Shown here in pieces: positions 5,481 through 52,667 of a DNA stretch of 64,000 nt; position 1 is the stretch's first letter, and every line of letters begins with the position of its first letter. The notes below the pieces were generated by a model. The model worked only from the letters and a program-made list of their open reading frames with translations, did no database searches and was not told where the DNA came from. The position numbers were made by a program, and so were the translations under genes. Source of the stretch: a virus. Taxonomy: Duplodnaviria; Heunggongvirae; Uroviricota; Caudoviricetes. Where the stretch lies: the IMG/VR virus record IMGVR_UViG_3300027917_000030; one strand, given 5' to 3'.

Positions 5481-5615
5481 TACTCGGCTGTTTTCTCCTT
5501 GAGTTTTCTATATCCATATTTGAGTAATTCCCAAGCAAACGGTCCGGCCACCAAGCCAATTGTTAATCCGAAAACAAAATCCATTTTGAAAATCACCTCC
5601 TAAAATAAAGTATAA

Positions 5616-6209: not shown

Positions 6210-6505
6210 CCTCTCCTACCACGCTTCTTAGTATCTCTTGAGCGCCGAGCCTTATGGATAACCCCAAACGGTTTTTTTCTAACCCATTTCAGATATTTAT
6301 AAAACTGTTTGTTGTTTTTAATTGCCTCGACAGTATTTAAAACTTCCGCCAGAATTTTGTTATCAAAAAGAGCATGAAGTTGTCGGTGGCAATCTTTGCA
6401 AACTTTAATTAATTTGTGGCCACCAAGACTGCGAGGTACTACATGATGATCAGTTATTTCAGGAACTATTCTTTCACATAAAGCACAAATATATTCTTCT
6501 TTCAT
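6206..6505 (-). CDS. HNH endonuclease
   Basis: CALCERIVPEITDHHVVPRSLGGHKLIKVCKDCHRQLH. It carries an HNH motif with Cys4 Zn ligands. Confidence 0.7.
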   Translation of the reverse strand: MKEEYICALCERIVPEITDHHVVPRSLGGHKLIKVCKDCHRQLHALFDNKILAEVLNTVEAIKNNKQFYKYLKWVRKKPFGVIHKARRSRDTKKRGRRG

Positions 6506-6597
6506 AATTTTAATTGGTTATGATTATTTCGCAAATTTTTGTTGACAAATTTGAAGTTCAATTTAAGTTAATTACTAAGAAACCGAGAAAAATATTC

Positions 6598-7263: not shown

Positions 7264-8149
7264 CTACTTCTGGGACAGAAGATGGGGGTACATCTAATTG
7301 TTTAATGATAGCAAATAAAGTTGTTTTTTTACCACTTACATCAACGGCTGCGGCAAAATTGTGACCGCCACCGCCCATAACCTTAGCTAAGTCAGCCAAC
7401 TTGCCAGAATCAATAAGGTTTTGGTTGGATGTTCGTAACCTGGCTTTATTCATTCCATCTACCAAACATACATTTTCGTAATATCGAAATAACGTATCCA
7501 TTATTTCTGATACTACAATTTGATCCTGTTCGTCTACTTCCGCGATCATAAACCCATTACGACACTTATGAAGTTTAGCAGTTTTAAGTCCAAGTAATGC
7601 TTGGCTATATCTTATAGGTCTAATAGATGTTAAAATCTGTTGAGCCTTCTCATTGGTAATATTGAGTTTTCTTCCCACATCCATTATCTCATTCCACTCT
7701 CGCATAAAAAGAGTATCCGTATATAGCCCTACCAAAAGCACATCATCAATAATTCCAAAGTCTAGTGCTAAAATAGCAGCAGTAGAACATCTTTTTATAA
7801 CATAAATTTTCTTTCTGGGATTATGCTCATCAAGTCTGGTATCATGATGGTCTATACATATAAATGGTTCTTTAATTTCAAACCCAATTCTATCTTCCGA
7901 ATAACCTGAATCCAAAACAATTGTTTGTTCAATTTCAGGGATTTCTTTAGGTAAATCATCCTCAGATAAAATCCACGACAAGTGTTCAGGAATTGTACCC
8001 TCAACCTTCGCTACGGCAGTTTTACCATTTGAACGTAAGTGATTGAGAACTGCCTTAATTGAAGATAAAGAGTCCCCATCAGGATTCACATGTCCTACTA
8101 CCAATGAATCCTTCAGAGGTATTTTATATCTTGTCATAATTTCTCCCAA
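7226..8149 (-). CDS. DHH/DHHA1 phosphoesterase (NrnA-like nanoRNase/pAp phosphatase)
   Basis: GHVNPDGDSLSS, ICIDHHDT and the GGGGH DHHA1 motif. Confidence 0.7.
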   Translation of the reverse strand: MGEIMTRYKIPLKDSLVVGHVNPDGDSLSSIKAVLNHLRSNGKTAVAKVEGTIPEHLSWILSEDDLPKEIPEIEQTIVLDSGYSEDRIGFEIKEPFICIDHHDTRLDEHNPRKKIYVIKRCSTAAILALDFGIIDDVLLVGLYTDTLFMREWNEIMDVGRKLNITNEKAQQILTSIRPIRYSQALLGLKTAKLHKCRNGFMIAEVDEQDQIVVSEIMDTLFRYYENVCLVDGMNKARLRTSNQNLIDSGKLADLAKVMGGGGHNFAAAVDVSGKKTTLFAIIKQLDVPPSSVPEVDGYEEGKKSEKS

Positions 8150-8155
8150 AAAACT

Positions 8156-8422
8156 TTATCTTTCTAAGAGGAATCTTCTTACTTGCTCAGGATTAGCCCC
8201 TCCAGTAAGTCTATTAACAACTTCGTTTCCTCTTTTTAAAATAAGGGTAGGAATAGAACGGATACCGTACTCTCTGGCCATATCAGGATCTTCATCTACA
8301 TTTACCTCAACCAAATCTATATAATTTATATCTGACACTATATTTTTAATAATAGGTTCCATGGCTTTACAAGGAGCACACCACGGGGCCTTAAATGTCA
8401 TAAGAATCAGTTTTTCCATCAT
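8156..8422 (-). CDS. trxA: Thioredoxin
   Basis: 88 aa with WCAPCK active site (WCxxC) and a thioredoxin-like overall pattern. Confidence 0.85.
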   Translation of the reverse strand: MMEKLILMTFKAPWCAPCKAMEPIIKNIVSDINYIDLVEVNVDEDPDMAREYGIRSIPTLILKRGNEVVNRLTGGANPEQVRRFLLER

Positions 8423-8549: not shown

Positions 8550-8909
8550 TTATTTAGAAATGTATGTTTTTCCTATCTTTGGTATTGGTTCTTTATGTCT
8601 TTTTTCTACTTTAGGAACCTGTTTTTTAGGAGGTTTGTTTCTCTTTTTATCCTTAATTTTTACTCTACTATCACCTCGACACTTGCAGTCTGCACATGTA
8701 CCCATATCTCTTTGGTCTGGACCTATTGGACACTCTTTATATGCCATCCCATGATGCCATAAAATATAAGGTGATAGCGGACAAGAAAACTTTGGGGGTT
8801 TAGTAATATACTTAGGCATTCTTTCAGTTTCCACTATAACAGTTTCACCAGAAGAATACAATTGCTTCAACGATAAAGGATTCTTACTCATTTTTATCTC
8901 CCATGACAT
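8550..8909 (-). CDS. Hypothetical Cys-rich basic protein (119 aa)
   Basis: CP...C...CADCKCRG. It carries no signal peptide. Confidence 0.3.
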   Translation of the reverse strand: MSWEIKMSKNPLSLKQLYSSGETVIVETERMPKYITKPPKFSCPLSPYILWHHGMAYKECPIGPDQRDMGTCADCKCRGDSRVKIKDKKRNKPPKKQVPKVEKRHKEPIPKIGKTYISK

Positions 8910-9439
8910 TTCTTGAATTTTATGCGCTTACCATTAATAGTTTTTCCACAAGGGCAGGGATCATTTCTCCCAATCTTATTTTTACCTATAGCGCGGTCAG
9001 TAATTAAGATGCTATCTAAATGATCGCATTCGTGCTGCACCGCAATAGCCACCAACCCTGAAGCAACAAATCCAGCCGGATGAAGATCATCTTTTACGAA
9101 AACTTCTTTAAATCTATGTGTATTAAAACTTTCTCCAGGAAAACTTAAACACCCTTCATCAAAAAAGGTTGTTCCAAAACTCTGATCAATAATTTCAGGA
9201 TTCACTAAATCAACAAATTCTTTTGAATTTTCGTGAGAAATGCGAACTATTGCAACCCGCTTATGAATTCCTATTTGCGGGGCTGCAAGACCTATTCCCG
9301 GTTTATCAGAACTATCAAGAGCAGTTTCTAACTTATCTATAATACTCCGTGCCTCATATGGATCGATCCTGTCATTAGGCCTTCTCAACTCCTCAATATC
9401 AGTGATAATCTTCATAGGATTAGAAATTTTTTCAATCAT
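8894..9439 (-). CDS. def: Peptide deformylase with C-terminal SEC-C-like Zn motif
   Basis: GIGLAAPQIG, EGCLSFPGE and HECDHL are the three PDF motifs. The C-terminus NDPCPCGKTINGKRIKFKKCHGR resembles the SecA/YecA SEC-C metal-binding motif. Confidence 0.8.
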   Translation of the reverse strand: MIEKISNPMKIITDIEELRRPNDRIDPYEARSIIDKLETALDSSDKPGIGLAAPQIGIHKRVAIVRISHENSKEFVDLVNPEIIDQSFGTTFFDEGCLSFPGESFNTHRFKEVFVKDDLHPAGFVASGLVAIAVQHECDHLDSILITDRAIGKNKIGRNDPCPCGKTINGKRIKFKKCHGR

Positions 9440-9975
9440 TTCTTCTCCAAAGCAATGATCATAGTTATCGAGTTACCTTCAATGCGAGCGTTAGAATCTA
9501 TAACGAAAGGAACAGTCACCAGACTAATGAACTTCTCTAACATAGCCCTACCGGTATCCAGCATATGCTCTTGTTCCCTGCCACGAAAATAAACTGCCAA
9601 TTTAACCTTATCACCCTTTTCCATAAATTGCCCAGCACGCTTGGCTCTATACTTCAAATCATTATCGCCAGTTGTAGGTCGAAATTTTAGTTCTTTAATC
9701 TCCTGCCTATGGCTTTTGTTTTTCTTGTTCTTTTTTGATTGCTCATATTTCCATTTTCCCAAGTCCATAATGCGACAGACTGGAACTCCCTTAGAACCTG
9801 AACTAACTTCAACCAAATCTAAACCAACATTCTGAGCCTTATACAGGGCATCACTAATGTTAACATTACCAAAATTATTACCATTTTCATCAATAAGCAA
9901 CACGGTGCGTGCTCTAATCTTGTCATTTACATTATTATTCTGCATTGCTTGAAACTTCCTCCAACGCTTCCTCAA
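9436..9975 (-). CDS. infC: Translation initiation factor IF-3
   Basis: VLLIDENGNNFGNVNISDALYKAQNVGLDLVEVS...PVCRIMDLGKWKYE and a C-terminal domain typical of InfC. Confidence 0.85.
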   Translation of the reverse strand: MRKRWRKFQAMQNNNVNDKIRARTVLLIDENGNNFGNVNISDALYKAQNVGLDLVEVSSGSKGVPVCRIMDLGKWKYEQSKKNKKNKSHRQEIKELKFRPTTGDNDLKYRAKRAGQFMEKGDKVKLAVYFRGREQEHMLDTGRAMLEKFISLVTVPFVIDSNARIEGNSITMIIALEKK

Positions 9976-11600: not shown

Positions 11601-13208
11601 TTATGCAGTTGGAGGATCATTAGATTCTGTTGGATCATCTGCAACCATTGCTTCTGTGGTAATTAACATCGAAGCGACACTTGCAGCATTCTGTAGTGCA
11701 CACCTAACAACCTTTTTGGGATCAATAATACCAGCCGCAACAAGATCTTCATATTTACCCTGTGCTGCATTATATCCAAATTCCAGCCTATCTACATCCA
11801 AAATAGTTTGTTCAACAACATCAGGCTTATCGCCAGCATTCTCTACAATTTTCCTCAAGGGCGCTTTTAAACTATTAAGAATTATTTTGGCCCCCTCGCG
11901 CTCTCCTTTATCAAGTGTTTCTAGTAAGTTAAACACATCCTTAGCACATCTTAACAGTGCTACCCCGCCACCAGGTACAATTCCTTCCTCAACGGCGGCA
12001 CGAGTCGCATGTACAGCATCTTCAACCCTATCTTTCTTTTCCTTCATTTCTGGTTCAGTTGGTGCTCCAACTCTAATAACCGCCACACCACCAATTAATT
12101 TAGCCAATCTATCTTTCAACATCTTCCTATCATATTCGGAATCACAATGTTCAAGGTCTGCACGGATCTGAGAAGCCCTTTCTAAGATTGCTTCTTTCTT
12201 ACCGCCACCACCTACAATAGTTGTATTAGCCCTGTTCACAACAACTTTCCTGGCTTCACCAAGGTGAGATAGTTCAGCACGATCAAATGTCATACCAATA
12301 TCTTTGGAGAAAAGAGTTGCTCCTGTAAGAACACTAAGATCCTTGAGCATTTCTTTCCGTCGCTCCCCAAATCCAGGAGCCTTAATTGGGCAATTAAATA
12401 ACGCCCCGCGTAACTTATTTTGTATTAAGGTTGCCAACACTTTCTGACTGTAATCTTCCGCTATAATAAGAATGGGTTTGCCACTTTTCGAAACCTCCTG
12501 TAAGAGTGGTACAAGAGTTTCAATTTCTTCAAGTCTACCGTCAACAACCAGTACAAATGTTTCCGGGAGTTCCACAATACTTCTATCACCATCTGTAATA
12601 AAGTATGGTGTAATATAGCCTCTGTCAAATTGCATGCCATCCGACAGTTCCAAATATGTCTTAAGTGTTTGAGATTCTTCAATAGTGATTACGCCTTCTT
12701 TTCCAACCTTCTCCATGCCCTCCGCAATAAGTTTCCCGATCTGTTCATCGTTGGCAGAAATTGTTCCTACCTGAGCAATCTCTTCTGGATCTTGTGTAAG
12801 TTTTGTCATGTTGTTTAGAGTTTCCACTACAACATTGACAGCCCTATCAATACCCCTTTTTAAATCCACAGGATTATAACCTGCAGTTAATAATTGAAGA
12901 CCCTCGTTATAAATAGCCTGGGCCAAAACCGTTGCAGTTGTAGTCCCATCGCCCGCTTCATCGCAGGTCTTGGAAGCAGCAGTTTTTACCATCTGCGCTC
13001 CCATATCTTCAAACTGATCCTGCAAGAAGATCTCTTTTGCAATCGTTACCCCATCTCGTGTTACATGTGGTGCTCCCCACGACCTACGTAGTAGAACATG
13101 CCTACCTTTTGGACCCAAAGTAACACATACCGCATTTGTAAGTTTATCAACACCAGATTTTATTAGGGTCCTGGCTTCCGTATTATACTTAACAATTTTA
13201 CTAATCAT
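11601..13208 (-). CDS. groL: Chaperonin GroEL (Hsp60)
   Basis: 535 aa. GPKGRHVLL..GAPHVTRDGVTIAKEI, the AAVEEGIVPGGGVALL equatorial motif, and GDGTTTATVLAQA. It lacks the C-terminal GGM repeats, as phage GroELs often do. Confidence 0.9.
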   Translation of the reverse strand: MISKIVKYNTEARTLIKSGVDKLTNAVCVTLGPKGRHVLLRRSWGAPHVTRDGVTIAKEIFLQDQFEDMGAQMVKTAASKTCDEAGDGTTTATVLAQAIYNEGLQLLTAGYNPVDLKRGIDRAVNVVVETLNNMTKLTQDPEEIAQVGTISANDEQIGKLIAEGMEKVGKEGVITIEESQTLKTYLELSDGMQFDRGYITPYFITDGDRSIVELPETFVLVVDGRLEEIETLVPLLQEVSKSGKPILIIAEDYSQKVLATLIQNKLRGALFNCPIKAPGFGERRKEMLKDLSVLTGATLFSKDIGMTFDRAELSHLGEARKVVVNRANTTIVGGGGKKEAILERASQIRADLEHCDSEYDRKMLKDRLAKLIGGVAVIRVGAPTEPEMKEKKDRVEDAVHATRAAVEEGIVPGGGVALLRCAKDVFNLLETLDKGEREGAKIILNSLKAPLRKIVENAGDKPDVVEQTILDVDRLEFGYNAAQGKYEDLVAAGIIDPKKVVRCALQNAASVASMLITTEAMVADDPTESNDPPTA

Positions 13209-15410: not shown

Positions 15411-15880
15411 CGGAGCCTCCGTAAAATAAAACGATCCTTTTTCTTATGTTCGATGCTCCAATAAATAAAAAGATCCAGTATACTGTCAGCATTATATGAT
15501 ACAGTCTGCCTACCAGAATACAATTCTACCATCAAATAACAATCAAATGCTGAAATTCTTTCAATCTCCCTTGCCAGAAATTGCCGTTCTTTCAAATTCA
15601 TAAAACACAAAAGATAATTACAAAGAATAAAGTCAGCACTTTTATTCGGAAGTGGAATACCATTATAGGAAAGATCAACCTGAGTTCCGTAATCTCCTTT
15701 AAGATCAAAGGCTCTAATATTAGAAAATCCATTCTCCAGCATGAATTTGGAATTGCGACCATTGCCGCAACCCAAATCTACTATTCTGGAATCTTTAGGA
15801 AGGTTTAGTTTCAGTTTAGGCAGCCATTCTCTTAAATATGGTGAAGCCACTTTCCTATTACATCTTATTACTTTATGCAT
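15407..15880 (-). CDS. Class I SAM-dependent methyltransferase (157 aa)
   Basis: IVDLGCGNGRNSKFM motif I. Confidence 0.55.
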   Translation of the reverse strand: MHKVIRCNRKVASPYLREWLPKLKLNLPKDSRIVDLGCGNGRNSKFMLENGFSNIRAFDLKGDYGTQVDLSYNGIPLPNKSADFILCNYLLCFMNLKERQFLAREIERISAFDCYLMVELYSGRQTVSYNADSILDLFIYWSIEHKKKDRFILRRLR

Positions 15881-16754
15881 CCTTTACAATAATATGGTCA
15901 TTTCCCAAAACTACTTCATGATTAAGGCCACTGCCACTCTGGAAACCAGCCTTAACAAAAGCAGTTTTAGGTACTCTTAACCTACCATCAACAATCGTTG
16001 CAGTAGCAAGAACGGTGTCACTAACATCTACCTGATGTGAATTCTTTAAAACAATATCGTTTTCGTGTACGGCATAAATCGTAGATTCTTCAGCCCAACC
16101 CAAATGCCTAACCCAAGTTGCAGGAATTTCCAAACGACAATCACCCTTCTGCCTACGAACCTGCCTGTCGTTAGAACTATTCACAACCTGTACTGTACCG
16201 GCAGTTCTGGCACTACTTGGAATAACCATAGGTGTAGCACTCTGGCTGTCGCTTTGGGTATCCTGACTATCATCATTTTTTGCATCCTGGTCGCTTTGCG
16301 CTGGAGGAATCGCCACCTGAGATCGGCGATCATAGGCTGATGCTGAAACAGACTGATGGTGATATAGATATGCTTGTCTGGTATTACCACTTGAAACGGT
16401 AACATCAATCATAGACCGCTCAAAACCAAAGTCTTCCATGAGTCCTTCAACATACAGAATCCTTACAACATGAGCAATATCACGATGCCTTGTAGAAGCA
16501 AACCCTTGCTGCTTAACCTTATTACTTACATCAAGGCTCGTAAAAGATTGTAGTTTATCACAAAAATCTTCTACTACTTCAGTTACCTTGTCCTTAAGTT
16601 CCATCTTTTTCTCTCCTTTTTTGTTTGTTGTATCAGGCGGTACCAATATTGTTAGTACCGGCGCGAAACCATAACCGTCCAATGGTATGATATTTCGCAT
16701 AAAAACGATATCTCTCCAATCTGGTAAACTATAACCATCTTTATCTTTAGACAT
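15873..16754 (-). CDS. Hypothetical protein with C-terminal tandem AbrB/SpoVT-like repeats (293 aa)
   Basis: DCRLEIPATWVRHLGWAEESTIYAVHENDIVLK and GRLRVPKTAFVKAGFQSGSGLNHEVVLGNDHIIVK. Confidence 0.35.
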   Translation of the reverse strand: MSKDKDGYSLPDWRDIVFMRNIIPLDGYGFAPVLTILVPPDTTNKKGEKKMELKDKVTEVVEDFCDKLQSFTSLDVSNKVKQQGFASTRHRDIAHVVRILYVEGLMEDFGFERSMIDVTVSSGNTRQAYLYHHQSVSASAYDRRSQVAIPPAQSDQDAKNDDSQDTQSDSQSATPMVIPSSARTAGTVQVVNSSNDRQVRRQKGDCRLEIPATWVRHLGWAEESTIYAVHENDIVLKNSHQVDVSDTVLATATIVDGRLRVPKTAFVKAGFQSGSGLNHEVVLGNDHIIVKDA

Positions 16755-16762: not shown

Positions 16763-18241
16763 TCAACAGTTCGATTGAAATTCAACAATATACCTTAATC
16801 TATGTTGTTGTCCTGATCCAGAGCCTGCATAAGTCATATTTTCTGAGTTATAAAGACCACTACCTGGTATTGCATATACACTATGATAACCATGTGGAGG
16901 CTGTCTGAAAAATTGTGATCTGGTAACAACATGTGGTTTACCCACAACAACATCCTCTAAAAATAAAAAGGCCCTATTGCTCTTACTACCACCAGACCAA
17001 TATGCCCCACGGCAACCTGTATAATTCATTGATTTTGTTGAGTTTTCTGCATGGTACAGCGCGTCACCAAACATGGAGCCCGTATAAACTGCACCAGATG
17101 GGCGTATCAACAGGCCACGAGTAATGATACCAACCATATTTTGTGGACGCGTACCATGCCACAACGGCCAAACATTGGCAGTTGTGAAAACTTCTTTTTC
17201 ATCTTCACTCAAATCTGGGCGATTCAATTTAGTAAATTTTGGCTGATATTTAGTTCTTCCTTTCCCAATCTGCTTTGCAACTTTTTCTGCCGTAGCCATG
17301 AAATGGTCAGGCTCACCATTTCGAACAAGTTTGAAAATATTAAATATTTTAACACGCCCCAGAAAACTATGATTTCTTGCTCGAGTTTCGTGGGTTAACA
17401 TTTCAACCCATTTATAAATAGGATCAGAAGGATCAATCCAGTCCAACTCAGCATTTAACTTTCTATATTGTTCATCAACCGCCGTGCCTTTACCTAAAAC
17501 GGAAGCAACATTTTTAGCATCTAAAAAGGTATCCAACGTATCATGCTTTTCCATAACTCGATCAATATTATCGAGCCGCAAAGATGTTGGATCAATCTTA
17601 TGTGGCAAAACGTGTGGTATAAGACTGTAGAACTGTGATGTTAGATTATCATAAGCAGTTACATCTGACCTATTTGCCGAGATTAACTTTTTACATTCAT
17701 CTAAGACTGATCGCCCCTTGTCTATTTGTTCCCTGGTAAGTTGTCCCAGAGGACACTTGAGATTCATCTCGATAAAATGACCCGTAGAACCGAACCAACC
17801 AGACACCAAACGCTGGACTTCGGCATGTAGCACACTGATCCCCTTGCCAGCCTCAATGCCCGTCATAGGCTTTTTGATTTCTTTAGCACCAGCAGAACCA
17901 ACACTGGTGATTGCTAAATCAACTTCCCTATATGGATCCTTCTTGCGGTCTCGCTTCTTTTTAACCAGTGATTCATAATCCGACAAGCAAGCGTCTTCTG
18001 ATGAATAATATCTATATTCCTTCGCAGAAGTCTTACCAACTCTGCCGTACATCGTGAAAATTCTTGCTTTTCCATCGGATGCAACTTGAATCTCAGCATG
18101 ATAAAATTTATTTGAATTTTTTATCACGTCGGTGCAATTCCCTTCCCACCTTTTTGTCACCCTAAAGTCTGATGGAAACGGCGGCTGATTAGCATCACCA
18201 TCTTTCCAAACTTTCGCTTTCATACTTGCGCCCATACTCAC
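16763..18241 (-). CDS. Poly(ADP-ribose) polymerase-like protein: WGR domain + PARP catalytic domain
   Basis: N-terminal W..FY...GRVG (WGR). C-terminal LWHGTRPQNMVGIITRGLLIRP...GSMFGDALYHAENSTKSMNYTG...YIVEF aligns with PARP1 [23 protein letters not shown]...[21 protein letters not shown]...YNEYIVY. The H-Y-E triad is present. Confidence 0.8.
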   Translation of the reverse strand: MSMGASMKAKVWKDGDANQPPFPSDFRVTKRWEGNCTDVIKNSNKFYHAEIQVASDGKARIFTMYGRVGKTSAKEYRYYSSEDACLSDYESLVKKKRDRKKDPYREVDLAITSVGSAGAKEIKKPMTGIEAGKGISVLHAEVQRLVSGWFGSTGHFIEMNLKCPLGQLTREQIDKGRSVLDECKKLISANRSDVTAYDNLTSQFYSLIPHVLPHKIDPTSLRLDNIDRVMEKHDTLDTFLDAKNVASVLGKGTAVDEQYRKLNAELDWIDPSDPIYKWVEMLTHETRARNHSFLGRVKIFNIFKLVRNGEPDHFMATAEKVAKQIGKGRTKYQPKFTKLNRPDLSEDEKEVFTTANVWPLWHGTRPQNMVGIITRGLLIRPSGAVYTGSMFGDALYHAENSTKSMNYTGCRGAYWSGGSKSNRAFLFLEDVVVGKPHVVTRSQFFRQPPHGYHSVYAIPGSGLYNSENMTYAGSGSGQQHRLRYIVEFQSNC

Positions 18242-18522: not shown

Positions 18523-18544
18523 AAGGGCACAAAAATGTGCCCTT
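18523..18544 (-). terminator. Rho-independent terminator after the serine protease gene
   Basis: AAGGGCACA-aaaa-TGTGCCCTT 9-bp stem followed, on the minus strand, by UUUUUUUAUUUU. Confidence 0.6.
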
Positions 18545-18567: not shown

Positions 18568-19290
18568 TTATAAGAATTTTCTAATCATTTCCCAAGCAAT
18601 AGCATAATGTCCACCTGGCTCTATAAGAATACAATGAGCACTCACTCTCAAGAGATGGATAGCATGTAGCACCCCAACAAGTTGGCCTGCTTCATTAAAC
18701 ATTCCACCACCAGAGTTGCCAAAAAACACCTCGGCATCCGTACGATAGAGCAACTTACTTCCCGAAGAAACTTTGTTACTAACTATTCCACGGGTGACCG
18801 TTCGCTTCTCACCAAGTGGCGCACCAATAACCCAAATTCTTTCACCTATTTTTCCACCAACATTAGATACATCTGCATATGGTCCATCGTCCTTTTCTTT
18901 CTCGGTACCTATTAAAAGAGCCAGATCACTTTTAGCGTCATATTTATATATGACCATTTTGCGAATCTCTTTTTTTCTATATAAAATGTTAACTGGCTTA
19001 TCAAATTTTTGCCGATCGTCAACCACATGTGCTGCGGTTAAAACAATCATATAATCGTTACGCTGATTATGAATAATGGTACCAGCCCCCATGACACCGC
19101 CACGATCGTTTAAAACAGAAACGCTTGCAGCGTAAATGCCACGAATTTCTGGGGAAACATCCATGTACATAGATTTAACGCACCCTGTACAGAACAAAGC
19201 CAAAATAATCAGGACAAAAAACTTTTTCATATCCACCTCTCCTTTTTTAACCTGGAAAGCCAGCGAGAGGCGAAACGATTGGCATAGCAC
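18568..19290 (-). CDS. Trypsin-like serine protease (S1/DegP-like), membrane/secreted
   Basis: N-terminal hydrophobic segment, His in LTAAHVV, and the Ser motif GNSGGGMF. Confidence 0.7.
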   Translation of the reverse strand: MLCQSFRLSLAFQVKKGEVDMKKFFVLIILALFCTGCVKSMYMDVSPEIRGIYAASVSVLNDRGGVMGAGTIIHNQRNDYMIVLTAAHVVDDRQKFDKPVNILYRKKEIRKMVIYKYDAKSDLALLIGTEKEKDDGPYADVSNVGGKIGERIWVIGAPLGEKRTVTRGIVSNKVSSGSKLLYRTDAEVFFGNSGGGMFNEAGQLVGVLHAIHLLRVSAHCILIEPGGHYAIAWEMIRKFL

Positions 19291-19731: not shown

Positions 19732-20184
19732 TTACCCGCTTTTAATTTTTATTTGCTTCGGAATTTTTTCGGGCTTCTTGGGAATATTTATTGTAAGAAT
19801 TCCATCTTTATGGGTGGCTTCAATCTTTTCAACTTCAACCATAGACGGAAGTGTAAAGGATCTTACAAAAGTTCCTTCAGATCTTTCAACTCTAAAATAC
19901 TCCTTATTTTTATTTTCTTTAATGAGTTTCTTTTCACCCTTAATAGTTAATATCCCACTATCAACAGTGATATCAACATCTTCCTGTTTAACACCAGGCA
20001 GTTCGGCTTCCAGCGTAATCTTCTCCTTATCTTCATACACATCTACGGCTGGCCGCCAATTAGTAACATCAAAATCAAACAAACTTCTCATGTTTCTCTC
20101 AAACCGAGTTAACTCATTAAAAGGGCTCCATTTTACTAACATCTTAACACCTCCTGTTAGAAAAAAAAATTGAAGAACTAACAT
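19732..20184 (-). CDS. Small heat-shock protein Hsp20 (alpha-crystallin domain)
   Basis: WSPFNELTRFERNMRSLFD...WRPAVDVYEDKEKITLEAELPGVKQEDVDITVDSGILTIKGEK. Confidence 0.85.
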   Translation of the reverse strand: MLVLQFFFLTGGVKMLVKWSPFNELTRFERNMRSLFDFDVTNWRPAVDVYEDKEKITLEAELPGVKQEDVDITVDSGILTIKGEKKLIKENKNKEYFRVERSEGTFVRSFTLPSMVEVEKIEATHKDGILTINIPKKPEKIPKQIKIKSG

Positions 20185-23188: not shown

Positions 23189-23479
23189 TTACCCCTTAGG
23201 TTTCCTGGTACTTGCCTGCTGTCTGGCTTTACGACCTCTGGACTTTCGCATTTTCTTAATAGCCTCTCTGTGTTTGCGTCGCTTAACCTCTGAAGGTTTT
23301 TCAGCAAAGCGTCTCTTTTTCAACTCAGTAAGTACGCCTTCCCGTGACATTTTATTCTTAAGATCACGCAGCGCCTTCTCAATGTTGTTATCAAATACTT
23401 CTACTTCTAGTGGACCTACCCGATGCTCTTTCTTTTGCTTCCAGGCTGGACTTCGATTTTGATTATCCATTCTTGCCAT
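23189..23479 (-). CDS. rpsU: Ribosomal protein bS21
   Basis: Compare ...FDNNIEKALRDLKNKMSREGVLTELKKRRFAEKPSEVKRRKHREA with E. coli S21 ...[39 protein letters not shown]. It has a basic tail. Confidence 0.75.
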   Translation of the reverse strand: MARMDNQNRSPAWKQKKEHRVGPLEVEVFDNNIEKALRDLKNKMSREGVLTELKKRRFAEKPSEVKRRKHREAIKKMRKSRGRKARQQASTRKPKG

Positions 23480-23783
23480 TTTTCTGCTTCCTTATTGCTG
23501 AAATAACTAAATATGCGATTAGAAATCCCAAAAAATCACTAATAGAATCACCAACTATTTTATTAATAAATTCTTCTTTACCCGCAAATGGAAATGAGGG
23601 CATGTTGTTTACAACCCAATGTTCAAACATTTCCCAAATAAAAGCAACTGCAAGAGCCGCTGCCCAAACCTTTTTCTTAAATACAGGATAAAGAACAGTA
23701 GTGATTGCTATAAACCAAACTATATGATGTAAAGAGTAAAAATCAAATAAAGTTGTGCCTCCGCTTCCCCATATCCAATTCAT
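23463..23783 (-). CDS. Small polytopic membrane protein (106 aa)
   Basis: Three predicted TM helices. Confidence 0.35.
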   Translation of the reverse strand: MNWIWGSGGTTLFDFYSLHHIVWFIAITTVLYPVFKKKVWAAALAVAFIWEMFEHWVVNNMPSFPFAGKEEFINKIVGDSISDFLGFLIAYLVISAIRKQKNGKNG

Positions 23784-25098
23784 AATCTAAAACCGCCCTT
23801 TCAAATAAATCTTGTAGACTTTTGTGTGGAAAAACAGGTACGGATGTTTTACCACTTGGCACGAGCGAAGCGAGATTTGGGTGTAGAGATAATAAAGCAG
23901 CATTACAATATTTACGCACCACCTTTAAATCCACATCTTCACTCACAGATTCTCCATTATTGATATGGCAATCTAATAAAGGAGTTAGTTTCTCGGAGGG
24001 ATTTACAGCACCATCGACTGCCAATAAGTGCTGCCACTCTCCATCTCGCTGATCTAAAAATATCTGCTTTTTGCCAGGAACAGTCATTGATTGTGGTCTA
24101 ATTATCGGTTTGTCATTTGTATCGTCATAGACCATTTCATATGATATATCCAAGAGCGGAGCATCTCTGGAAGTCACCAAATCCGCACCCACTTCAAAAC
24201 AATCTATTGGCAGACCACAACGAGAGAGTTCATCAATAATATACTCGTTTAAATTCCCAAATACAGTAATGCTAGCATTGGTTTTACCAGCCGCATCTAA
24301 TGTTCTCCGAACATCAGACAATATCTTTGGATCTTTAAACTCAAGTCGCACACCATCCAATCGAGGGCTTTCGGTTGCCAATACCGCACCGTGAACAGGA
24401 TCGTATGTATCGATTAGCAAAACGGGATCCTTGAATGTCCGTTTTATAATCTCATACGCCTCTTGTTCCCTCTTATTAACCATTACCCATGTATGAGACA
24501 TGTCCCCAGTAACAGGGATGTTAAATCTTCTACTGGCTTCAACATTTGATGTAGCCGTGAATCCAGAAATGTATGCAGCACGAACAGCCCGTATCGCAGC
24601 CTCATGATGTGTTCGTTTCGTGCTAGATTCAATCACAGATTTTCCCCTGGCAGCCAAAACAATCCTGGCTGCCTTAGAAGCAATTTTTATATCATGAGAT
24701 AAAACAGACAACACAAAGGTTTCCGCCATATGAACTTCAGGTAATGTACCAGTGATTCTAATTAATGGCTCACCAGTGAAAACAATCTCCCCCTCAGCCA
24801 TCGACCAAAACTCTCCATTAAATTTAAAGTCTTCCAAGAATCTATCAAAATTAGACATATTCATAATACTTTTAAGTATCGGAATATCTTTAAGAAATTT
24901 GATATCATCTTTGGTAAATTTAAGATTTAACAGGAATTCTTTTATCTCTTCTGTTCCAGCCATAACCAAAAATCGACGCTCAGGGGGCAGTTTGTGCACG
25001 AAAGCCTCACATGTTACCACCCTTTTATGCAGCCCTTTATAAAATTGAACTGCCATCATAGCAATTTGGTGTAGGTCAACTTTCAGACTTTCGTGCAT
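23743..25098 (-). CDS. pncB: Nicotinate (or nicotinamide) phosphoribosyltransferase, NAPRTase family
   Basis: FTGEPLIRITGTLPEVHMAETFVLSVLSHDIKIASKAARIV, RAAYISGFTATSNV, IPVTGDMSHTWV, LLIDTYD and GVRLEFKDP track E. coli PncB (LLRIEGPL..ETPLLNLINFQTLIATKAARV; RAAYIGGADATSNV; IPVAGTMAHSFV; LLVDTYD; GVRIDSGD). Confidence 0.75.
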   Translation of the reverse strand: MHESLKVDLHQIAMMAVQFYKGLHKRVVTCEAFVHKLPPERRFLVMAGTEEIKEFLLNLKFTKDDIKFLKDIPILKSIMNMSNFDRFLEDFKFNGEFWSMAEGEIVFTGEPLIRITGTLPEVHMAETFVLSVLSHDIKIASKAARIVLAARGKSVIESSTKRTHHEAAIRAVRAAYISGFTATSNVEASRRFNIPVTGDMSHTWVMVNKREQEAYEIIKRTFKDPVLLIDTYDPVHGAVLATESPRLDGVRLEFKDPKILSDVRRTLDAAGKTNASITVFGNLNEYIIDELSRCGLPIDCFEVGADLVTSRDAPLLDISYEMVYDDTNDKPIIRPQSMTVPGKKQIFLDQRDGEWQHLLAVDGAVNPSEKLTPLLDCHINNGESVSEDVDLKVVRKYCNAALLSLHPNLASLVPSGKTSVPVFPHKSLQDLFERAVLDYELDMGKRRHNFI

Positions 25099-25107: not shown

Positions 25108-25542
25108 CTAAAAATACCAATCTGGATCAGTGTCTCTCTTTTCTCCAAGAATTAACTTCAACTTATCTCGCGAATGAAGAATTTCTTGAATGATTCGAAA
25201 GTATGTATCGCGCCGTCGGCGATAGTCTTCATCATTTTTCACAGGTTTGGGATTATATTCCCCTTCATCCTTGGAACATATGTGTGGTCTATGCGGCGGT
25301 AAATCGATAAACGAACCACCCTCTTTCGGATCAACAGGAGAAATAATTCCACGACGAATCAAATCCTCTCGTAAATTTTTGGAATTTTTCTCAGTAGACA
25401 TCACGGGGGACGCCCTCTTCTTTGAGATAATTCCAGTTTTGTTTGGTGTAATTACACCAAAGGCAATCAGCAGTCGCCGTCGGTTCCTACACTCCTTGTC
25501 TGTTGCAAATGCCAGGTCATTTGAATTAACGGTTTGAACCAT
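25108..25542 (-). CDS. Hypothetical protein (144 aa)
   Basis: ORF downstream of the E1-like gene. No motif recognised. It is not an obvious ubiquitin-like protein and has no C-terminal GG. Confidence 0.3.
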   Translation of the reverse strand: MVQTVNSNDLAFATDKECRNRRRLLIAFGVITPNKTGIISKKRASPVMSTEKNSKNLREDLIRRGIISPVDPKEGGSFIDLPPHRPHICSKDEGEYNPKPVKNDEDYRRRRDTYFRIIQEILHSRDKLKLILGEKRDTDPDWYF

Positions 25543-26377
25543 AGTTTTCCCTTTCTATTTTGCGATCTTGGTTTACAACACTTAAGTTTTCTTTTACATT
25601 AAGCCGTGTTGTAAAAGTGTTTCTAATACTAAACTCCACCCCATGAGATGCTAGGGGCATGCGTAGCAGGACATTTTGTGCATAATTCATAACTGCCGTT
25701 GCAGCCGTAGCGTTTGTCATCATATTCTGTGGAGCAGAAATTGCACGCTCAGCGCAACTCAACTCTGAGTTAAACTTTGATTTATCTGCAAGAATTTCTG
25801 GATAGACTTCGGTGACAACAGGAAGACTAAAGATTCCCTCGGTTTTATCAGAGTCCCGATGTATATTAATGGCTGGGCCATAGTATGTAAGCATTGGTGG
25901 TGCATAGCCACATATAACTTGTCCGTTACACTCTTCATTTCCAGAATCAATCCAAAAAACTGCCTGTGATTGTGGCTTGGTGAAGAATGTTTTATGGATT
26001 AATTTCCTGGACGCATTATTATCAACACATCCAATAATTAAAATAGATTCTCCAGAGAACTTTGGAAAGTCTGAGGCCTTTTCAATATTGTTTGTGATTG
26101 CCGAAACTGATAACCCGAAAGCCGCTGCATACCTTTCCGCCAAAACTTCAGCCTTATTTTTCCCAATATCTCGAGAAATGAAATTTTGTCTAATTAAATT
26201 CTTTTCTTCGACAACATCCCCATCGGCTATAGTAAGATCGGCGATATGCTTTGTGCTAAGAAACCTTGCCAGGTGCCCAATAACAAATGTACCAGTACCT
26301 CCGCAACCTAAAACGAGAACATTCCTTATTGTTGGGTAACCCTTAAGAGTAAAAATTCGTGGTAAACCTTTAATCAT
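25526..26377 (-). CDS. ThiF/MoeB/E1-like adenylyltransferase
   Basis: NVLVLGCGGTGTFVIGHLARF (Rossmann), DGDVVEEKNLIRQNF (the D..E.NL.RQ motif of E1/MoeB), IIGCVDNNASR, and candidate catalytic Cys in NEECNGQVICGY. Confidence 0.75.
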   Translation of the reverse strand: MIKGLPRIFTLKGYPTIRNVLVLGCGGTGTFVIGHLARFLSTKHIADLTIADGDVVEEKNLIRQNFISRDIGKNKAEVLAERYAAAFGLSVSAITNNIEKASDFPKFSGESILIIGCVDNNASRKLIHKTFFTKPQSQAVFWIDSGNEECNGQVICGYAPPMLTYYGPAINIHRDSDKTEGIFSLPVVTEVYPEILADKSKFNSELSCAERAISAPQNMMTNATAATAVMNYAQNVLLRMPLASHGVEFSIRNTFTTRLNVKENLSVVNQDRKIERENYGSNR

Positions 26378-26379
26378 GG

Positions 26380-27408
26380 TTAAAACCTTTTATCTCTCCA
26401 GTTGGTAGTACAGGAAAAATAATCATCACTATCGTCATCGTCATCATCGTCTGGCGTGTGATGATTGCCATCTTCATCTATATAGAACAACTTTTCTCCA
26501 TCCTGAATGAACCACTTTTTATCCCCTTCTTCGAGATAATATTCCCCCTCTTCTGGTACAAAAGCATCATTCGGATATAGATAATCACCACTCAGAAACT
26601 TAGCCACCTCAGAGGGATTTGGTTCCTCCAAGACATGCTGCATTTGTTTTTCAAATAAAGGAAGTTGAGAATGAAAGCGTGAACCAGGAAAAGCAGAGGA
26701 TTTAAATGTCCTAATCTTTTGTTTCTTAACTTTGCGCAACCATTCTTTTGGAAAATCATCACAAAGTTCATTTTCCACATCGAAGATTTCGTCTACATCA
26801 ACTTCGATCTTATGACCACCAATCGAAAGTCTCAACTTGATCTCAGGATAGAACTGTCCGATTTTCCCGACAACACCAAAGAATCTATCATCCTTCTCGT
26901 CGCCATCATCTGTTCCAGAAAAGAATGCTGACATGCCACCGTGGCTATGCATTTCCAGTACTAAGATTTTTTCCGGACTCTCAAAAGATCTGGTGTTTTC
27001 ATATGATACAGAACCCCCAGACACTTTTTGTTTTGGGCAGTTTAAAATATATTCTTCGGCCTTTGTATCATAAAAGAACTGGACATGTGCCTCGCTCTGG
27101 TGTTTCTTATAGATTGCTCTGAAAAATGAAAGTGTTGTCTTTAGTAAGCGTGATGGAACGAGCGGGACATCAAGTTCCCATCCCTCTTCCATGTTAGAAG
27201 GGAGTCCGGGAATTCTGGTTTCTGCCTGATGAATATAGAATGTGCCAATCTTGTTCTTCCTAATCTGCCAGACACCATCTCCCTGCATCAAATATAAAAC
27301 CTTCTTTTTAGAATCTTTTGGAAGTTCCCCAATGTGATGATCAACCAGCATTTTCTGTAACGCAAGTTCCGATACTTCACTTTTTTGCAACGCAAGTTTC
27401 TTACTCAT
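26380..27408 (-). CDS. JAB/JAMM-family metallopeptidase (deubiquitinase-like) with acidic C-terminal tail
   Basis: EMHSHGGMSAFFSGTDDGDE fits HxHx7Sx2D exactly. A conserved Glu lies upstream. The C-terminal tail is DDDDDDSDDYF. Confidence 0.75.
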   Translation of the reverse strand: MSKKLALQKSEVSELALQKMLVDHHIGELPKDSKKKVLYLMQGDGVWQIRKNKIGTFYIHQAETRIPGLPSNMEEGWELDVPLVPSRLLKTTLSFFRAIYKKHQSEAHVQFFYDTKAEEYILNCPKQKVSGGSVSYENTRSFESPEKILVLEMHSHGGMSAFFSGTDDGDEKDDRFFGVVGKIGQFYPEIKLRLSIGGHKIEVDVDEIFDVENELCDDFPKEWLRKVKKQKIRTFKSSAFPGSRFHSQLPLFEKQMQHVLEEPNPSEVAKFLSGDYLYPNDAFVPEEGEYYLEEGDKKWFIQDGEKLFYIDEDGNHHTPDDDDDDDSDDYFSCTTNWRDKRF

Positions 27409-27409
27409 T

Positions 27410-45319: not shown

Positions 45320-46163
45320 TGTTTTTCCGCCTAATCACAACCAGAGTTGTATCATCTTGCAACCAACCCACCTCACGTTGAATTTTTTGTGCTTTCCTAT
45401 CAAGACGCACGCTGGTTCTATTTACCAGGGCCAACTTTCGGTTAATTGCCTGTTGATTTGAAAAATACCGATCATCAGTCCAGAACTGACTGATTGGTCC
45501 GACCAACTCTTTTTTGCCGGGAATCGCTAGCTCATCAGCCCTTTCAAAATCATCAATGCCGTCAGTAGCAAGCATCAAACTATCAAGTTCATTAGTCGGA
45601 ATAATCCTAACCACTTTAAAATTCAAATCTTTTTCATTTACATTAACAATATATTTCTTTATTAAATTATATGCAATATAGGGCGGAGCATTATTTGCAT
45701 AGGGGCCTAACTTAATGATTTCCCCATTTACCACAACCGTGCCATCGCCTATAGAAATAACGAGAGTGTGCTCGTAACCAATAATGGCAACCAGGCACGT
45801 AAAAAGAAAATATTTCGTAATGCCATTAATTCCTTCAAAAGTGCTCCAGCTGGCTCCTTTTAAATCATTGAGGATTTGTTTTTTCTTATCCTCAAGCTCT
45901 AGATCTAAATCAATCAACCCGGTAGGGTCTATGAAAATATTTGGAGGATTGGAAAATCTTTTCGCAATAATACTTGATCCAAGCTGTGCGCCAACTTCAC
46001 TAAATTCTCCGCTGCCACAACCATCACATACTACCGCTACAATTTCGCCAGCACTCCCATATGCAATCTTAACTGCATCCTGGTTGTTTTTTCCGACATA
46101 CAAATGGTGCCTACCGATCGTAGAACCATGCGCAATTTCAAACAAATCTTTAACTGAAGTCAT
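45288..46163 (-). CDS. PP2C-family Ser/Thr phosphatase
   Basis: AVVCDGCGSGE and LMLATDGIDDF metal-binding aspartate motifs, SpoIIE/PP2C-like. Confidence 0.65.
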   Translation of the reverse strand: MTSVKDLFEIAHGSTIGRHHLYVGKNNQDAVKIAYGSAGEIVAVVCDGCGSGEFSEVGAQLGSSIIAKRFSNPPNIFIDPTGLIDLDLELEDKKKQILNDLKGASWSTFEGINGITKYFLFTCLVAIIGYEHTLVISIGDGTVVVNGEIIKLGPYANNAPPYIAYNLIKKYIVNVNEKDLNFKVVRIIPTNELDSLMLATDGIDDFERADELAIPGKKELVGPISQFWTDDRYFSNQQAINRKLALVNRTSVRLDRKAQKIQREVGWLQDDTTLVVIRRKNNDSLSTGEKT

Positions 46164-47062
46164 TGCACAACCTTTTCGCCGACCAAAGATTCTCTGCTAA
46201 GTGTTGGTGGAAGCTCAGCTTTATGTCTAGTAGCTTTCTCCATTTCACGAACTGCGGCGATTACTTTGCGCTCTTTCGCAGTGTAATCAAGATTGTGAAC
46301 TGGCTCAAATTCTAGCAGACCATCAATAATACCATGTTTATCATTTTCCCTAATCACCCATTCAATAGTTCCCATGGGCTCGTCCGGTCTAGTATACGTT
46401 AGTGGAACTCCGGTCAAATCTTTAAGTTCCTCTTCATCCTTATGGTCGTCACCTGCCCAAAGATCTGGTGTGGGTTCTGCGTCAATCACTTCCTGAGGCA
46501 CTCCGAGATATTTTGCTAGGCTCCACACTTCACTTTTGAACAACCCGGCGATCCAGTTACAATCTACCTCGCCGTCGCCACCCTTTTGATAGAAACGGAT
46601 AAGTTCATCTTCATCCCTGTTACCAGTACCTTGACGAATACCACCTCCAAAAACACGGTTTACAAATCTACCAACAGGAGCACGAAGACAGCTCTTAAAG
46701 CCACCTTCAATAGTCGGATGGTGACCTCTACTCTTGGTTGGTATTCCTAGTCTATCAAATTCTCTATGAACTTTACATATTATACTGTTAAATTCTCCAG
46801 TAAGATCAAGCTCAACCAGCCTAAACTTGAACGTCTCAGAAACAAGTCGTGCAAATTTTTTAGATTCGACTGAAGAATGAATGCAACTATAAACACCAAT
46901 TACATTATCTGGGCCAAATGCTTTACAAGCTAATGCAGCAACTACAGCGCTATCAACACCGCCCGAAATATCAACCTCCGCCTTATCAGTTCCGGCGACT
47001 ACAGCCTGTTCTCTCATTGCCTTAACAACAAGCCTTATAAGTTTCTTGTGATTAGTTATCAT
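46160..47062 (-). CDS. nadE: NH3-dependent NAD+ synthetase
   Basis: PP-loop DISGGVDSAVVAAL (SGGxDS) and C-terminal FYQKGGDGEVD...LTYT. It aligns to E. coli NadE. The start is probably MITNHKK rather than the upstream Met at 47107. Confidence 0.8.
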   Translation of the reverse strand: MITNHKKLIRLVVKAMREQAVVAGTDKAEVDISGGVDSAVVAALACKAFGPDNVIGVYSCIHSSVESKKFARLVSETFKFRLVELDLTGEFNSIICKVHREFDRLGIPTKSRGHHPTIEGGFKSCLRAPVGRFVNRVFGGGIRQGTGNRDEDELIRFYQKGGDGEVDCNWIAGLFKSEVWSLAKYLGVPQEVIDAEPTPDLWAGDDHKDEEELKDLTGVPLTYTRPDEPMGTIEWVIRENDKHGIIDGLLEFEPVHNLDYTAKERKVIAAVREMEKATRHKAELPPTLSRESLVGEKVVQ

Positions 47063-47366
47063 AATCTCTCCCAGACAATGTGCCCGAAACATCAACAGCA
47101 ATATCAATGCCTTTTTTTAATGCTAAAGTCTGGATTTCCTTTAAATCTTTTTCAGAAGTACCTTCAAGATTACTAACTATATAGAGTAATTGAATTCTGG
47201 TTGCTTCGGCTGCAGAATATCCCATGACCAGACCGTTCTTTAAATTTTTCATAATATGTCTGGCATACGTCTGAGCATACGGTTTAAATTCAACTTTGTC
47301 TTCATCTTGCCTATCAACAATATTGATAATTCTACGTTGGAATTCTTCCCACTCTGAAAAATTCAT
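47052..47366 (-). CDS. Hypothetical protein (104 aa)
   Basis: ORF. Confidence 0.3.
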   Translation of the reverse strand: MNFSEWEEFQRRIINIVDRQDEDKVEFKPYAQTYARHIMKNLKNGLVMGYSAAEATRIQLLYIVSNLEGTSEKDLKEIQTLALKKGIDIAVDVSGTLSGRDYDN

Positions 47367-47978: not shown

Positions 47979-48314
47979 CTACTCCTCCAGCAACTTGTCA
48001 AAACCATTCTCAATTTCAAAATCTGTTACCAACTGCTTTACTTTTCTATACTCTGAGAAAGTTTCAACCTTGGCTCCTTTTTTAATAAGTATTGATGGCC
48101 GAGCACCTGTTATTCTTTTGTTTTCAACATATCTTGAAATCACATTAGTGCATGCATAAATAACCAACCCAGGGAGAAAGATGGGCCAAAGTATAGTACT
48201 AAAAATTCTAGCCTCTTCATTCCAGTCAGTATGCTCATCAGCAAAAAACCAAGTAAGGCCAGCCAAGCCGCTATATAATATAAGGGAGCCTGCTATTATA
48301 AAACTAATCATCAT
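47979..48314 (-). CDS. Small membrane protein (111 aa)
   Basis: Two TM helices. Confidence 0.3.
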   Translation of the reverse strand: MMISFIIAGSLILYSGLAGLTWFFADEHTDWNEEARIFSTILWPIFLPGLVIYACTNVISRYVENKRITGARPSILIKKGAKVETFSEYRKVKQLVTDFEIENGFDKLLEE

Positions 48315-48871
48315 ATCTTCTTCTCCCGAACATCTTTCAGAAAATTATCAAACTCGTTTCGTTCTTTATTCTTGGGAAGATCATACACAATCACTCTATG
48401 ATAATCTCCGAGGATTGCCCCAATAATGGGCTCAACTACATCCCAATTACCTCCAGCCAAGCCGCAACCAATTCTTGGCATATGAATTGAGGCGTTTGGG
48501 AGATATGTTTTATCCATTCCCATCTTAACAGTATTAAGACTATCAATCCATTTCTTGAGGTCCGTTAAACAATGAACTAATGCCCCATAGTCAAGAGCGA
48601 CGGGATTGTCTTCAGAAACATACTTATGTTGCGCAGCCATATTGGCTACATATAATCTACCATGTTCATCCTTAACTGGCACCACTTGAACCTCACCAAG
48701 CGTAAGACCCCCCCACGCTCGATAATGGGCTTCTGGCTGTGGCCAGCGTTTAGATAGAGCAACTACAAAGCCCGATCCCCATCCGTGTTGATCATTTACT
48801 ATGTGTGCTATTACGCGTAACCCATCGGTTGCCGTTGGTTTAGTAGCATCACCTGTAACATAATCAATCAT
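48311..48871 (-). CDS. Macro domain protein (ADP-ribose binding/processing)
   Basis: VIAHIVNDQHGWGSGFVVAL and PRIGCGLAGGNWDVV match the macro-domain motifs (..VNCVG..GAGLA.. and ..PLIGAGLGGLDW..) of the DarG/TARG1-like branch. Confidence 0.55.
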   Translation of the reverse strand: MIDYVTGDATKPTATDGLRVIAHIVNDQHGWGSGFVVALSKRWPQPEAHYRAWGGLTLGEVQVVPVKDEHGRLYVANMAAQHKYVSEDNPVALDYGALVHCLTDLKKWIDSLNTVKMGMDKTYLPNASIHMPRIGCGLAGGNWDVVEPIIGAILGDYHRVIVYDLPKNKERNEFDNFLKDVREKKI

Positions 48872-52666: not shown

Positions 52667-52667
52667 T

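Follow-up and report, generated by a model that had tools for sequence, protein, structure and literature searches.

The 64,000-nt stretch of the IMG/VR virus record IMGVR_UViG_3300027917_000030 (Caudoviricetes), hereafter called the window in its full length, contains at 16763..18241 on the minus strand an open reading frame (ORF) for a PARP, which is the feature under study. Judged from its sequence, this ORF is a PARP1-3-type enzyme, combining a WGR domain, a regulatory helical domain (HD), and an ADP-ribosyltransferase (ART) domain with the H-Y-E triad, and is no mono-ART toxin. Its domains and conserved residues make it very probable that the protein is an active, regulated PARP-family transferase. 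With less assurance, we favor the wider proposal that it carries out break-activated, reversible ADP-ribosylation serving the maintenance of phage DNA.

A minimal PARP1-3-type enzyme

The first-pass annotation, made from the letters alone, had placed a PARP with a WGR and a catalytic domain at 16763-18241. The ORF is real and has exactly these coordinates on the minus strand. Both domains score above the curated gathering cut-offs of Pfam, and so does the HD, which had not been listed.

17945..18136, minus strand: WGR domain, residues 36-99 (Pfam PF05406, 45.2 bits; cut-off 22)
17474..17839, minus strand: PARP regulatory HD, residues ~135-256 (Pfam PF02877, 48.4 bits; cut-off 26.8)
16775..17416, minus strand: ADP-ribosyltransferase (PARP catalytic) domain, residues 276-489 (Pfam PF00644, 77.9 bits; cut-off 26.7)

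The Pfam match to PARP_reg spans residues 160-256, while the hhalign alignment to PARP1 begins at residue 135, equivalent to PARP1 K662; the PF00644 match covers residues 276-457. The claimed likeness of the catalytic region to human PARP1 was borne out, as the best match in both sequence and fold is PARP1 WGR-CAT. In the PDB sequence searches, human PARP1 WGR-CAT chains ranked highest whether the query was the single sequence (E 2.7e-26) or a profile of 37 family members (E 5e-50); PARP2, PARP3, PARP4, and the tankyrases came next. Furthermore, hhalign aligned the family profile with the PARP1 catalytic region over 307 columns (probability 99.9, E 6.5e-35); the human PARP1 catalytic sequence used for the alignment was checked against the PDB and was 100% identical.

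Structure prediction, which had been proposed as a check, places the protein with PARP1 and PARP2. The AlphaFold2 (AF2) model built on the family alignment had a mean predicted local distance difference test score (pLDDT) of 85.5 and a predicted template modeling score (pTM) of 0.79, with low confidence limited to the linker between WGR and HD and to the D-loop. The pLDDT was ~90 over residues 11-100, and the model was helical over residues 140-261. When the model was compared with the PDB by Foldseek, the top matches were PARP1 bound to a DNA break (TMq 0.68 and TMt 0.73 for 4dqy_C and 4opx_C) and PARP2 in complex with a double-strand break, and PARP1 catalytic domains were matched with TMt of 0.74-0.80. 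The first-pass annotation had named placement with mono-ART toxins that lack the WGR and regulatory domains as the result that would speak against a PARP; both domains are present, and the Pfam and PDB searches of the window PARP returned no match to a toxin family.

The order WGR - HD - ART and the length of the D-loop are the same as in human PARP1, PARP2, and PARP3, to which the phage-encoded window PARP is ~22-25% identical. Its layout is minimal and PARP2/3-like. The zinc fingers and BRCT domain of human PARP1 are absent, with ~35 residues preceding the WGR domain and no further Pfam domain.

The catalytic center and its conservation

Conservation of individual residues was counted in an alignment of 156 family members. 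The codons and segments concerned are as follows.

17156..17158, minus strand: H362 codon (PARP1 H862), kept in 156/156
17054..17056, minus strand: Y396 codon (PARP1 Y896), kept in 155/156
16841..16843, minus strand: E467 codon, the catalytic Glu (PARP1 E988), in the motif LYNSENMTY, kept in 156/156
16781..16783, minus strand: E487 codon, in 'YIVEF' on the terminal beta-strand, invariant and opposite Lys in PARP1
17177..17299, minus strand: family-specific insertion of ~30 aa, residues ~315-355, aligned to a gap in PARP1 and located between the HD side and the H362 strand
17213-17221, minus strand: invariant R341 and D343 of the motif RPD in the insertion (invariant columns)

E467 is assigned as the catalytic residue because PARP1 E988 aligns opposite it. 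In the hhalign alignment, the PARP1 segment 'SLLYNEYIVY', which contains E988, stands opposite 'GLYNSENMTY' of the window PARP. The first-pass annotation was thus right in recognizing an H-Y-E triad (H362, Y396, and E467) but had taken its glutamate from 'YIVEF'. That residue, E487, is not catalytic: 'LRYIVEF' is aligned with the last strand of PARP1, 'LKYLLKLKF', where E487 faces a lysine, and a secondary HMMER alignment to PARP2 (SPNQVRMRYLLKIQFN) agrees with the placement of this segment on the terminal strand. Among the strings it quoted, LWHG (residue 360) and YIVEF (residue 484) do exist, and the pattern around GSMFGDALYHAENSTKSMNY is close to what was quoted, with two positions departing from it.

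The NAD+ donor site is intact and, including the length of its D-loop, PARP1-like. Residues H362, G363, Y396, K403, S404, Y407, and E467 correspond to H862, G863, Y896, K903, S904, Y907, and E988 of human PARP1, and the residue numbers from H362 to Y407 equal those of PARP1 minus exactly 500. K403, Y407, and N465 are invariant in the 156 relatives as well. As the triad and the donor-site residues are essentially invariant among these relatives, the family appears to be under purifying selection for catalysis. The WGR signature reads Y65-G66-R67, and its three residues are kept in 154, 155, and 151 of the 156 relatives, respectively. E487, R341, and D343 are likewise invariant in the relatives, without a counterpart in PARP1. 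In the AF2 model, helices of the insertion are found at residues 310-325 and 346-354.

Relatives in phages and bacteria

The first-pass annotation had described phage-borne WGR-PARPs as rarer even than bacterial PARPs, which overstates their rarity given the homologs, viral loci, annotated phage proteins, PHROG family, and published surveys described here. A large protein database yielded 701 matches at E below 1e-5; the best 120 of the 701 share the three Pfam domains of the window PARP, and contigs of 100-490 kb carry many of them. When 1.84 billion cluster representatives were searched exhaustively, 3108 PARP-like clusters emerged, 61 of them at E <=1e-30. The nearest relatives outside the family are all metagenomic proteins. 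IMG/VR contained 39 loci of the window PARP subfamily (17 on contigs >200 kb), and search patterns specific to the subfamily found five loci in 185,579 species genomes, all in metagenome-assembled genomes (MAGs).

Some homologs are labeled as belonging to Patescibacteria, Kofleriaceae, Berkiella, and Omnitrophota MAGs. Locus L047, from a MAG labeled Candidatus Berkiella, is probably mis-binned phage DNA because it is fully syntenic with the huge-phage clade. The contig of P0032 (labeled Patescibacteria) is probably mis-binned too; such bacterially binned contigs are either fully syntenic with the phage clade or carry near-identical PARPs. The high-GC Kofleriaceae loci are the only ones that look cellular.

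Among deposited phages, 16 records have a homolog of the PARP catalytic domain, two of which cover >=80% of the query, namely the uncultured huge phage LR756511 (96% of the window PARP) and XacN1 (91%; ORF414, BBA65562.1). Both are phage-encoded PARP-family proteins like ours, but their identity of 28-29% sets them in a different subfamily, and the neighborhood of the XacN1 gene (a vWA protein and ORFs without annotation) has nothing obvious in common with the window. The proteins of XacN1 and of a further phage, Xoo-sp13, are annotated as 'poly (ADP-ribose) polymerase'. PHROG 23333 also represents phage-encoded PARPs and matches the window PARP at E 8e-34, and BFVD holds three-domain viral homologs. 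Jumbo-phage PARPs are already known from surveys published in 2021-2024. Iyer et al. 2021 reported, with reference to the XacN1 protein, PARPs 'in few jumbo phages' (PMC7824862), Iyer et al. 2022 listed PART/PARP among the commonest viral ART families (PMC9503650), and a 2024 study found a PARP1-type gene in many NAD-jumbo phages (PMC11662467). The window PARP therefore adds a member to a kind that was already known.

Bacterial PARPs with WGR, PARP_reg, and PARP domains are active in vitro (PMC8120803). HaPARP from Herpetosiphon aurantiacus and CdPARP from Clostridioides difficile share the three domains and the catalytic Glu with the window PARP and make poly(ADP-ribose) (PAR) in vitro; HaPARP requires DNA, and the products of both enzymes are reversed by cognate hydrolases (PMC8120803). 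Likened to these enzymes by their published description, the window family differs in residing almost entirely on huge-phage contigs and in having a macrodomain protein and NADAR, not PARG, as linked erasers. Alt, ModA, and ModB of phage T4 are NAD+-dependent ADP-ribosyltransferases of a phage as well, but they are mono-ARTs of the R-S-E (cholera-toxin) clade that lack WGR and HD and target the host RNA polymerase and translation apparatus (PMC8120803), whereas the window PARP has the H-Y-E triad and PARP fold together with both domains.

Genes conserved around the PARP

The PARP gene and its immediate surroundings contain the following features.

16763..18241, minus strand: PARP gene as the longest ORF in the ORF list, 492 aa from GTG 18241, uninterrupted
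16763-18235, minus strand: probable PARP coding sequence, 490 aa from the ATG at 18235 (M3 of the longest ORF)
15873..16754, minus strand: partner gene, 293 aa, beginning 8 nt downstream of the PARP stop codon
18238..18498, minus strand: small Lys-rich ORF, 86 aa, whose TGA overlaps the PARP GTG 18241 (GTGA)
18523..18544, minus strand: terminator-like hairpin, a 9 bp stem followed by a T-run, 3' of the trypsin-like protease gene

ATG 18235 is the probable start, since the sequence AAGGTG, which resembles a ribosome-binding site, lies 6-7 nt upstream and the gene call of the database protein P0001 (490 aa, identical to the window PARP) begins at the same Met. Conservation of the small Lys-rich ORF was seen in locus L007 only. 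The sequence of the hairpin is suggestive only of a possible 5' boundary for a unit of small ORF, PARP, and partner; terminator-like sites in the region were not clearly above the shuffled expectation, with this one convincing hairpin, and the promoter scan gave no excess (18 matches against 19 expected from shuffled sequence).

In the partner protein, an acidic/Ser-rich linker joins a winged-helix-like domain at residues 51-135 to an AbrB/MraZ-like beta domain at residues 197-291. The protein had no match in Pfam, PHROG, or PADLOC. In its AF2 model, pLDDT was above 90 in both domains, with the H-E-H-H-E-E topology of a winged-helix-like fold, and Foldseek gave coherent matches, namely MraZ (AbrB-type) for the C-terminal part and the winged helices of TFIIE, PadR, and Fur for the N-terminal domain. 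On the basis of these models, we regard the partner with moderate confidence as a putative DNA-binding protein. We clustered the ORFs within 6 kb of the PARP (<=6 kb) in 46 loci. In 32 loci, among them the cellular Kofleriaceae loci, a gene downstream of the PARP encodes the domain of residues 51-135, and the partner adjoins the PARP in five of the six loci of the window's clade. In a clade of ~45% identity, the partner is ~165 aa long, consists of the winged-helix domain only, and lies 1-5 kb downstream; in the high-GC Kofleriaceae MAG loci, it is directly downstream. At least 11 of 24 partner homologs lie on contigs equal in size to those of PARP homologs.

Genes for DNA repair and for handling ADP-ribose recur in the same neighborhoods. 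A NAD-dependent DNA ligase is encoded within 6 kb of the PARP in 26/44 loci, and 13 loci have a gene of T4 endonuclease V type downstream, in several of them right next to the PARP. A macrodomain gene is near the PARP in 26 loci (L010-L042; L004 13472-13951 and equivalents) and NADAR in 21. The macrodomain was recognized by profile search in a 160-aa protein between the endonuclease V-like gene and NADAR (BT1257 type, E 1.2e-5). In the ~45% clade, the PARP, endonuclease V, Macro, and NADAR genes and an upstream NAD-dependent ligase gene form a conserved block, and two loci of the window's own clade (L003 and L006) have an ATP-dependent ligase near the PARP. At locus L044, in a Kofleriaceae MAG with 68% GC (4013-8278), LigA is divergently adjacent to the PARP and the partner is directly downstream, among cellular neighbors (ECF sigma factor, formylglutamate amidohydrolase, MATCAP, and Band 7). 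This locus, and also L045 and L046, may be a bacterial source or sink of the phage module.

The window itself also encodes a macrodomain protein.

48311..48871, minus strand: macrodomain protein, 186 aa, BT1257/SCO6735 subclass, from PDB sequence search

It was missed by Pfam at E <=1e-3 and matched 2afc (3.5e-31), 5e3b (SCO6735; 5.3e-29), and, more weakly, the PAR-binding macrodomain of CHD1L/ALC1 (7e-9) in the PDB; with the PARP-linked macrodomain family of the relatives, it aligned at an hhalign probability of 95%. SCO6735 removes Glu-linked mono-ADP-ribose and is DNA-damage inducible (PMC8120803). By sequence, the window protein is thus a candidate eraser or reader of ADP-ribosylation.

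Gene content and phage affiliation of the window

All long ORFs of the 64 kb are on the minus strand and tightly packed, and each 2 kb bin has a negative GC skew (about -0.12 to -0.25), a pattern consistent with one long co-oriented replication/transcription arm. Other genes relevant to the setting of the PARP are listed below.

23743..25098, minus strand: nicotinate phosphoribosyltransferase-like gene (NAPRTase; Pfam NAPRTase_N, 81 bits)
46160..47107, minus strand: NAD synthase (NadE-like; Pfam PF02540, 87 bits)
5616-6209, minus strand: phosphoribosyltransferase
11601-13208, 19732-20184, 33119-35452, and 18568-19290, minus strand: proteostasis set of GroEL, Hsp20, full-length Lon, and a secreted-type trypsin-like protease
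8894-9975, 23189-23479, and 498-584, minus strand: translation genes, namely peptide deformylase, IF3, an S21-like ORF, and tRNA-Tyr
35462-36640, 39326-40600, 47376-47978, 51305-52786, 56711-57586, 37708-38523, 49332-50066, and 52668-53171, minus strand: RNA-repair and tRNA-maintenance genes
37708-38523, minus strand: metallophosphoesterase
25526-28144, minus strand: prokaryotic ubiquitin-like conjugation set (ThiF/E1-like, JAB, and Prok-E2_D)

The RNA-repair set includes RNA ligases of Rnl1 and Rnl2 type, a RlaP nucleotidyltransferase, a CCA-adding enzyme, Thg1, two metallophosphoesterases, and CYTH, and its density suggests a defense against host tRNA and RNA nucleases. The identity of the S21-like ORF was inferred from BLAST clustering with a gene of locus L001 annotated PF01165. 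The trypsin-like protease gave weak PADLOC matches, through its protease domain only. PP2C and radical SAM genes were also annotated in the window. A NAPRTase gene is found upstream of the PARP in L003 too. The window's genes for NAD+ synthesis fit the published 'NAD-jumbo phages', which carry NAD-consuming enzymes as well. L001 and L003 have kept the ThiF/JAB/Prok-E2_D set as well, upstream of their PARP region.

Around the PARP, the window is syntenic with IMG/VR viral contigs spanning 243-441 kb, and one contig of 316 kb repeats the order Hsp20 - protease - PARP - 290-aa protein - kinase - GroEL - IF3 - deformylase. Synteny and gene content thus support the phage-like context described in the first-pass annotation and point to a huge phage. 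The phage assignment rests on these two lines because the 64 kb yielded no capsid, terminase, or tail hallmark gene, nor were virion hallmarks found by a PHROG scan of ten unannotated ORFs of the window. Megablast of the 20 kb around the PARP gene gave no match to deposited phages, and tblastn with the window's Lon, aimed at the nearest cultured phage, returned only scattered matches of 40-50%, which were uninformative.

Proposed function and alternative explanations

In the proposed mechanism, the WGR domain would bind a nucleic-acid break or end, as its homology with PARP1/2/3 and with the DNA-dependent Herpetosiphon PARP suggests. Binding would loosen the autoinhibitory HD and open the NAD+ site, after which the PARP would ADP-ribosylate itself, proteins in its vicinity, and perhaps the ends of DNA or RNA. 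Judging from the gene context, the reaction would help to maintain a very large phage genome by marking or managing nicks and breaks that come from replication, UV, and host nucleases. NAD+ would be supplied by the phage's own NAPRTase and NAD synthase, the phage macrodomain would reverse or read the modification, and the adjacent winged-helix/AbrB-like protein would act as a partner, either as target or as recruiter. A role in DNA maintenance is proposed because of the links with ligase, endonuclease V, macrodomain, and NADAR genes in the relatives and because of the macrodomain, NAPRTase, and NAD synthase genes of the window.

Several observations weigh against this proposal. The Trp of the WGR motif is replaced by Tyr in the window PARP family. 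Moreover, positions on or near the acceptor side differ from PARP1, with N465 for Y986, L378 for R878, a deletion of ~28 residues before the catalytic Glu, and the 30-aa insert. These differences make polymer formation uncertain; the H-Y-E triad is needed for polymer synthesis yet not sufficient. When the window was searched with profiles for LigA, endonuclease V, NADAR, and the other genes linked to the PARP in the ~45% clade, only the macrodomain turned up, ~30 kb from the PARP, and the fold matches of the partner are weak (E 0.017 or higher). The linked-locus counts are not independent because most loci are related by descent within one phage lineage, so the synteny may reflect descent and not function, with independent support coming essentially from the Kofleriaceae loci. 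In addition, host proteins may be the main targets of the PARP, and our literature search found no experimental study of any phage PARP.

Given the differences on the acceptor side (N465, L378, and the deleted loop), the enzyme might instead be a PARP3-like mono-ADP-ribosyltransferase or a DNA/RNA-end modifier that marks termini or single residues. This explanation overlaps with break-activated ADP-ribosylation in DNA maintenance and differs in the product alone, and we hold it to be a real, if minority, possibility. H-Y-E is also found in PARP4 ('Protein mono-ADP-ribosyltransferase PARP4' is among the PDB matches), the linked erasers are an SCO6735-type de-MARylase and NADAR with no PARG, and enzymes of RNA-end repair abound in the window (Rnl1, RlaP, Thg1, the CCA-adding enzyme, and phosphoesterases). 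The length of the D-loop and the donor site are, however, PARP1/2-like, and the assayed bacterial PARPs of the same architecture make PAR (PMC8120803). A different target is envisaged if the PARP is an effector of host takeover or counter-defense, which would modify mainly host proteins such as RNA polymerase, translation factors, and defense nucleases in the manner of T4 Alt/ModA/ModB, the WGR domain only localizing it to nucleic acid. Such a role has been suggested for jumbo-phage PARPs (PMC7824862), phage ARTs are commonly takeover factors (PMC9503650), and the window is rich in host-manipulation and accessory genes (E2/JAB/ThiF, Lon, PP2C, and translation factors). We nevertheless think it rather unlikely, as the retained autoinhibitory HD and WGR sensor point to conditional, break-triggered activity, and the linked genes encode DNA ligases, endonuclease V, and erasers, not head-packaging or early takeover functions. 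Host takeover would also be meaningless in a cellular genome, yet the same trio of LigA, PARP, and partner is found in one.

AbrB/MazE-type domains are common in antitoxins, and an AbrB-like domain occurs in the partner, whose gene is tightly adjacent to that of the PARP. Together they could form a toxin or an abortive-infection/superinfection-exclusion module, in which an NAD+-consuming PARP is triggered by foreign DNA ends and the partner serves as antitoxin or regulator; ART toxins with partner antidotes are known, e.g., DarT/DarG (PMC8120803). We consider this very improbable. The toxin-antitoxin reading has low weight because the partner of the distant relatives in the ~45% clade is a winged-helix domain only and is not adjacent, at 1-5 kb from the PARP, and a defense system has low weight because neither PARP nor partner matches PADLOC. 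The synteny is furthermore conserved and housekeeping-like, and full WGR-HD regulation is typical of repair PARPs. Hardly credible, finally, is the explanation that the window is cellular DNA, e.g., from a small-genome bacterium, and the PARP an ordinary bacterial one. It would account for 64 kb without a capsid, terminase, or tail hallmark and for the homologs labeled as Patescibacteria, Kofleriaceae, Berkiella, and Omnitrophota MAGs. But the genes are all on one strand and tightly packed, the syntenic relatives are the IMG/VR viral contigs of 243-441 kb, and an accessory set such as this one (S21-like, IF3, deformylase, GroEL, and tRNA repair) is what published huge phages typically carry; the 'Berkiella' contig is probably mis-binned, which leaves only the high-GC Kofleriaceae loci as cellular in appearance.

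Implications

To the published jumbo-phage PARPs, our analysis adds the corrected catalytic residue, the acceptor-site differences of the family, a conserved partner, and the ligase and eraser associations. A further idea, which we advance as speculation and judge unlikely as it stands, is that the PARP, winged-helix partner, DNA ligase, and macrodomain/NADAR eraser constitute a conserved prokaryotic/phage module for break signaling. If true, the module would amount to a pared-down version of the eukaryotic PARP-chromatin-ligase axis. Within the module, the PARP would modify a DNA-bound partner, or be recruited by it, at breaks of the phage genome, and this might help huge phages to survive nuclease attack by the host or to replicate very long genomes. 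The eukaryotic response to DNA damage has PARP signaling at its center, while the prokaryotic and viral relatives of this signaling are nearly unstudied. Being compact and under strong selection in huge phages, the WGR-HD-ART enzyme of this family may offer a tractable model for break sensing coupled to ADP-ribosylation, and the same model could show what phages gain from this modification.

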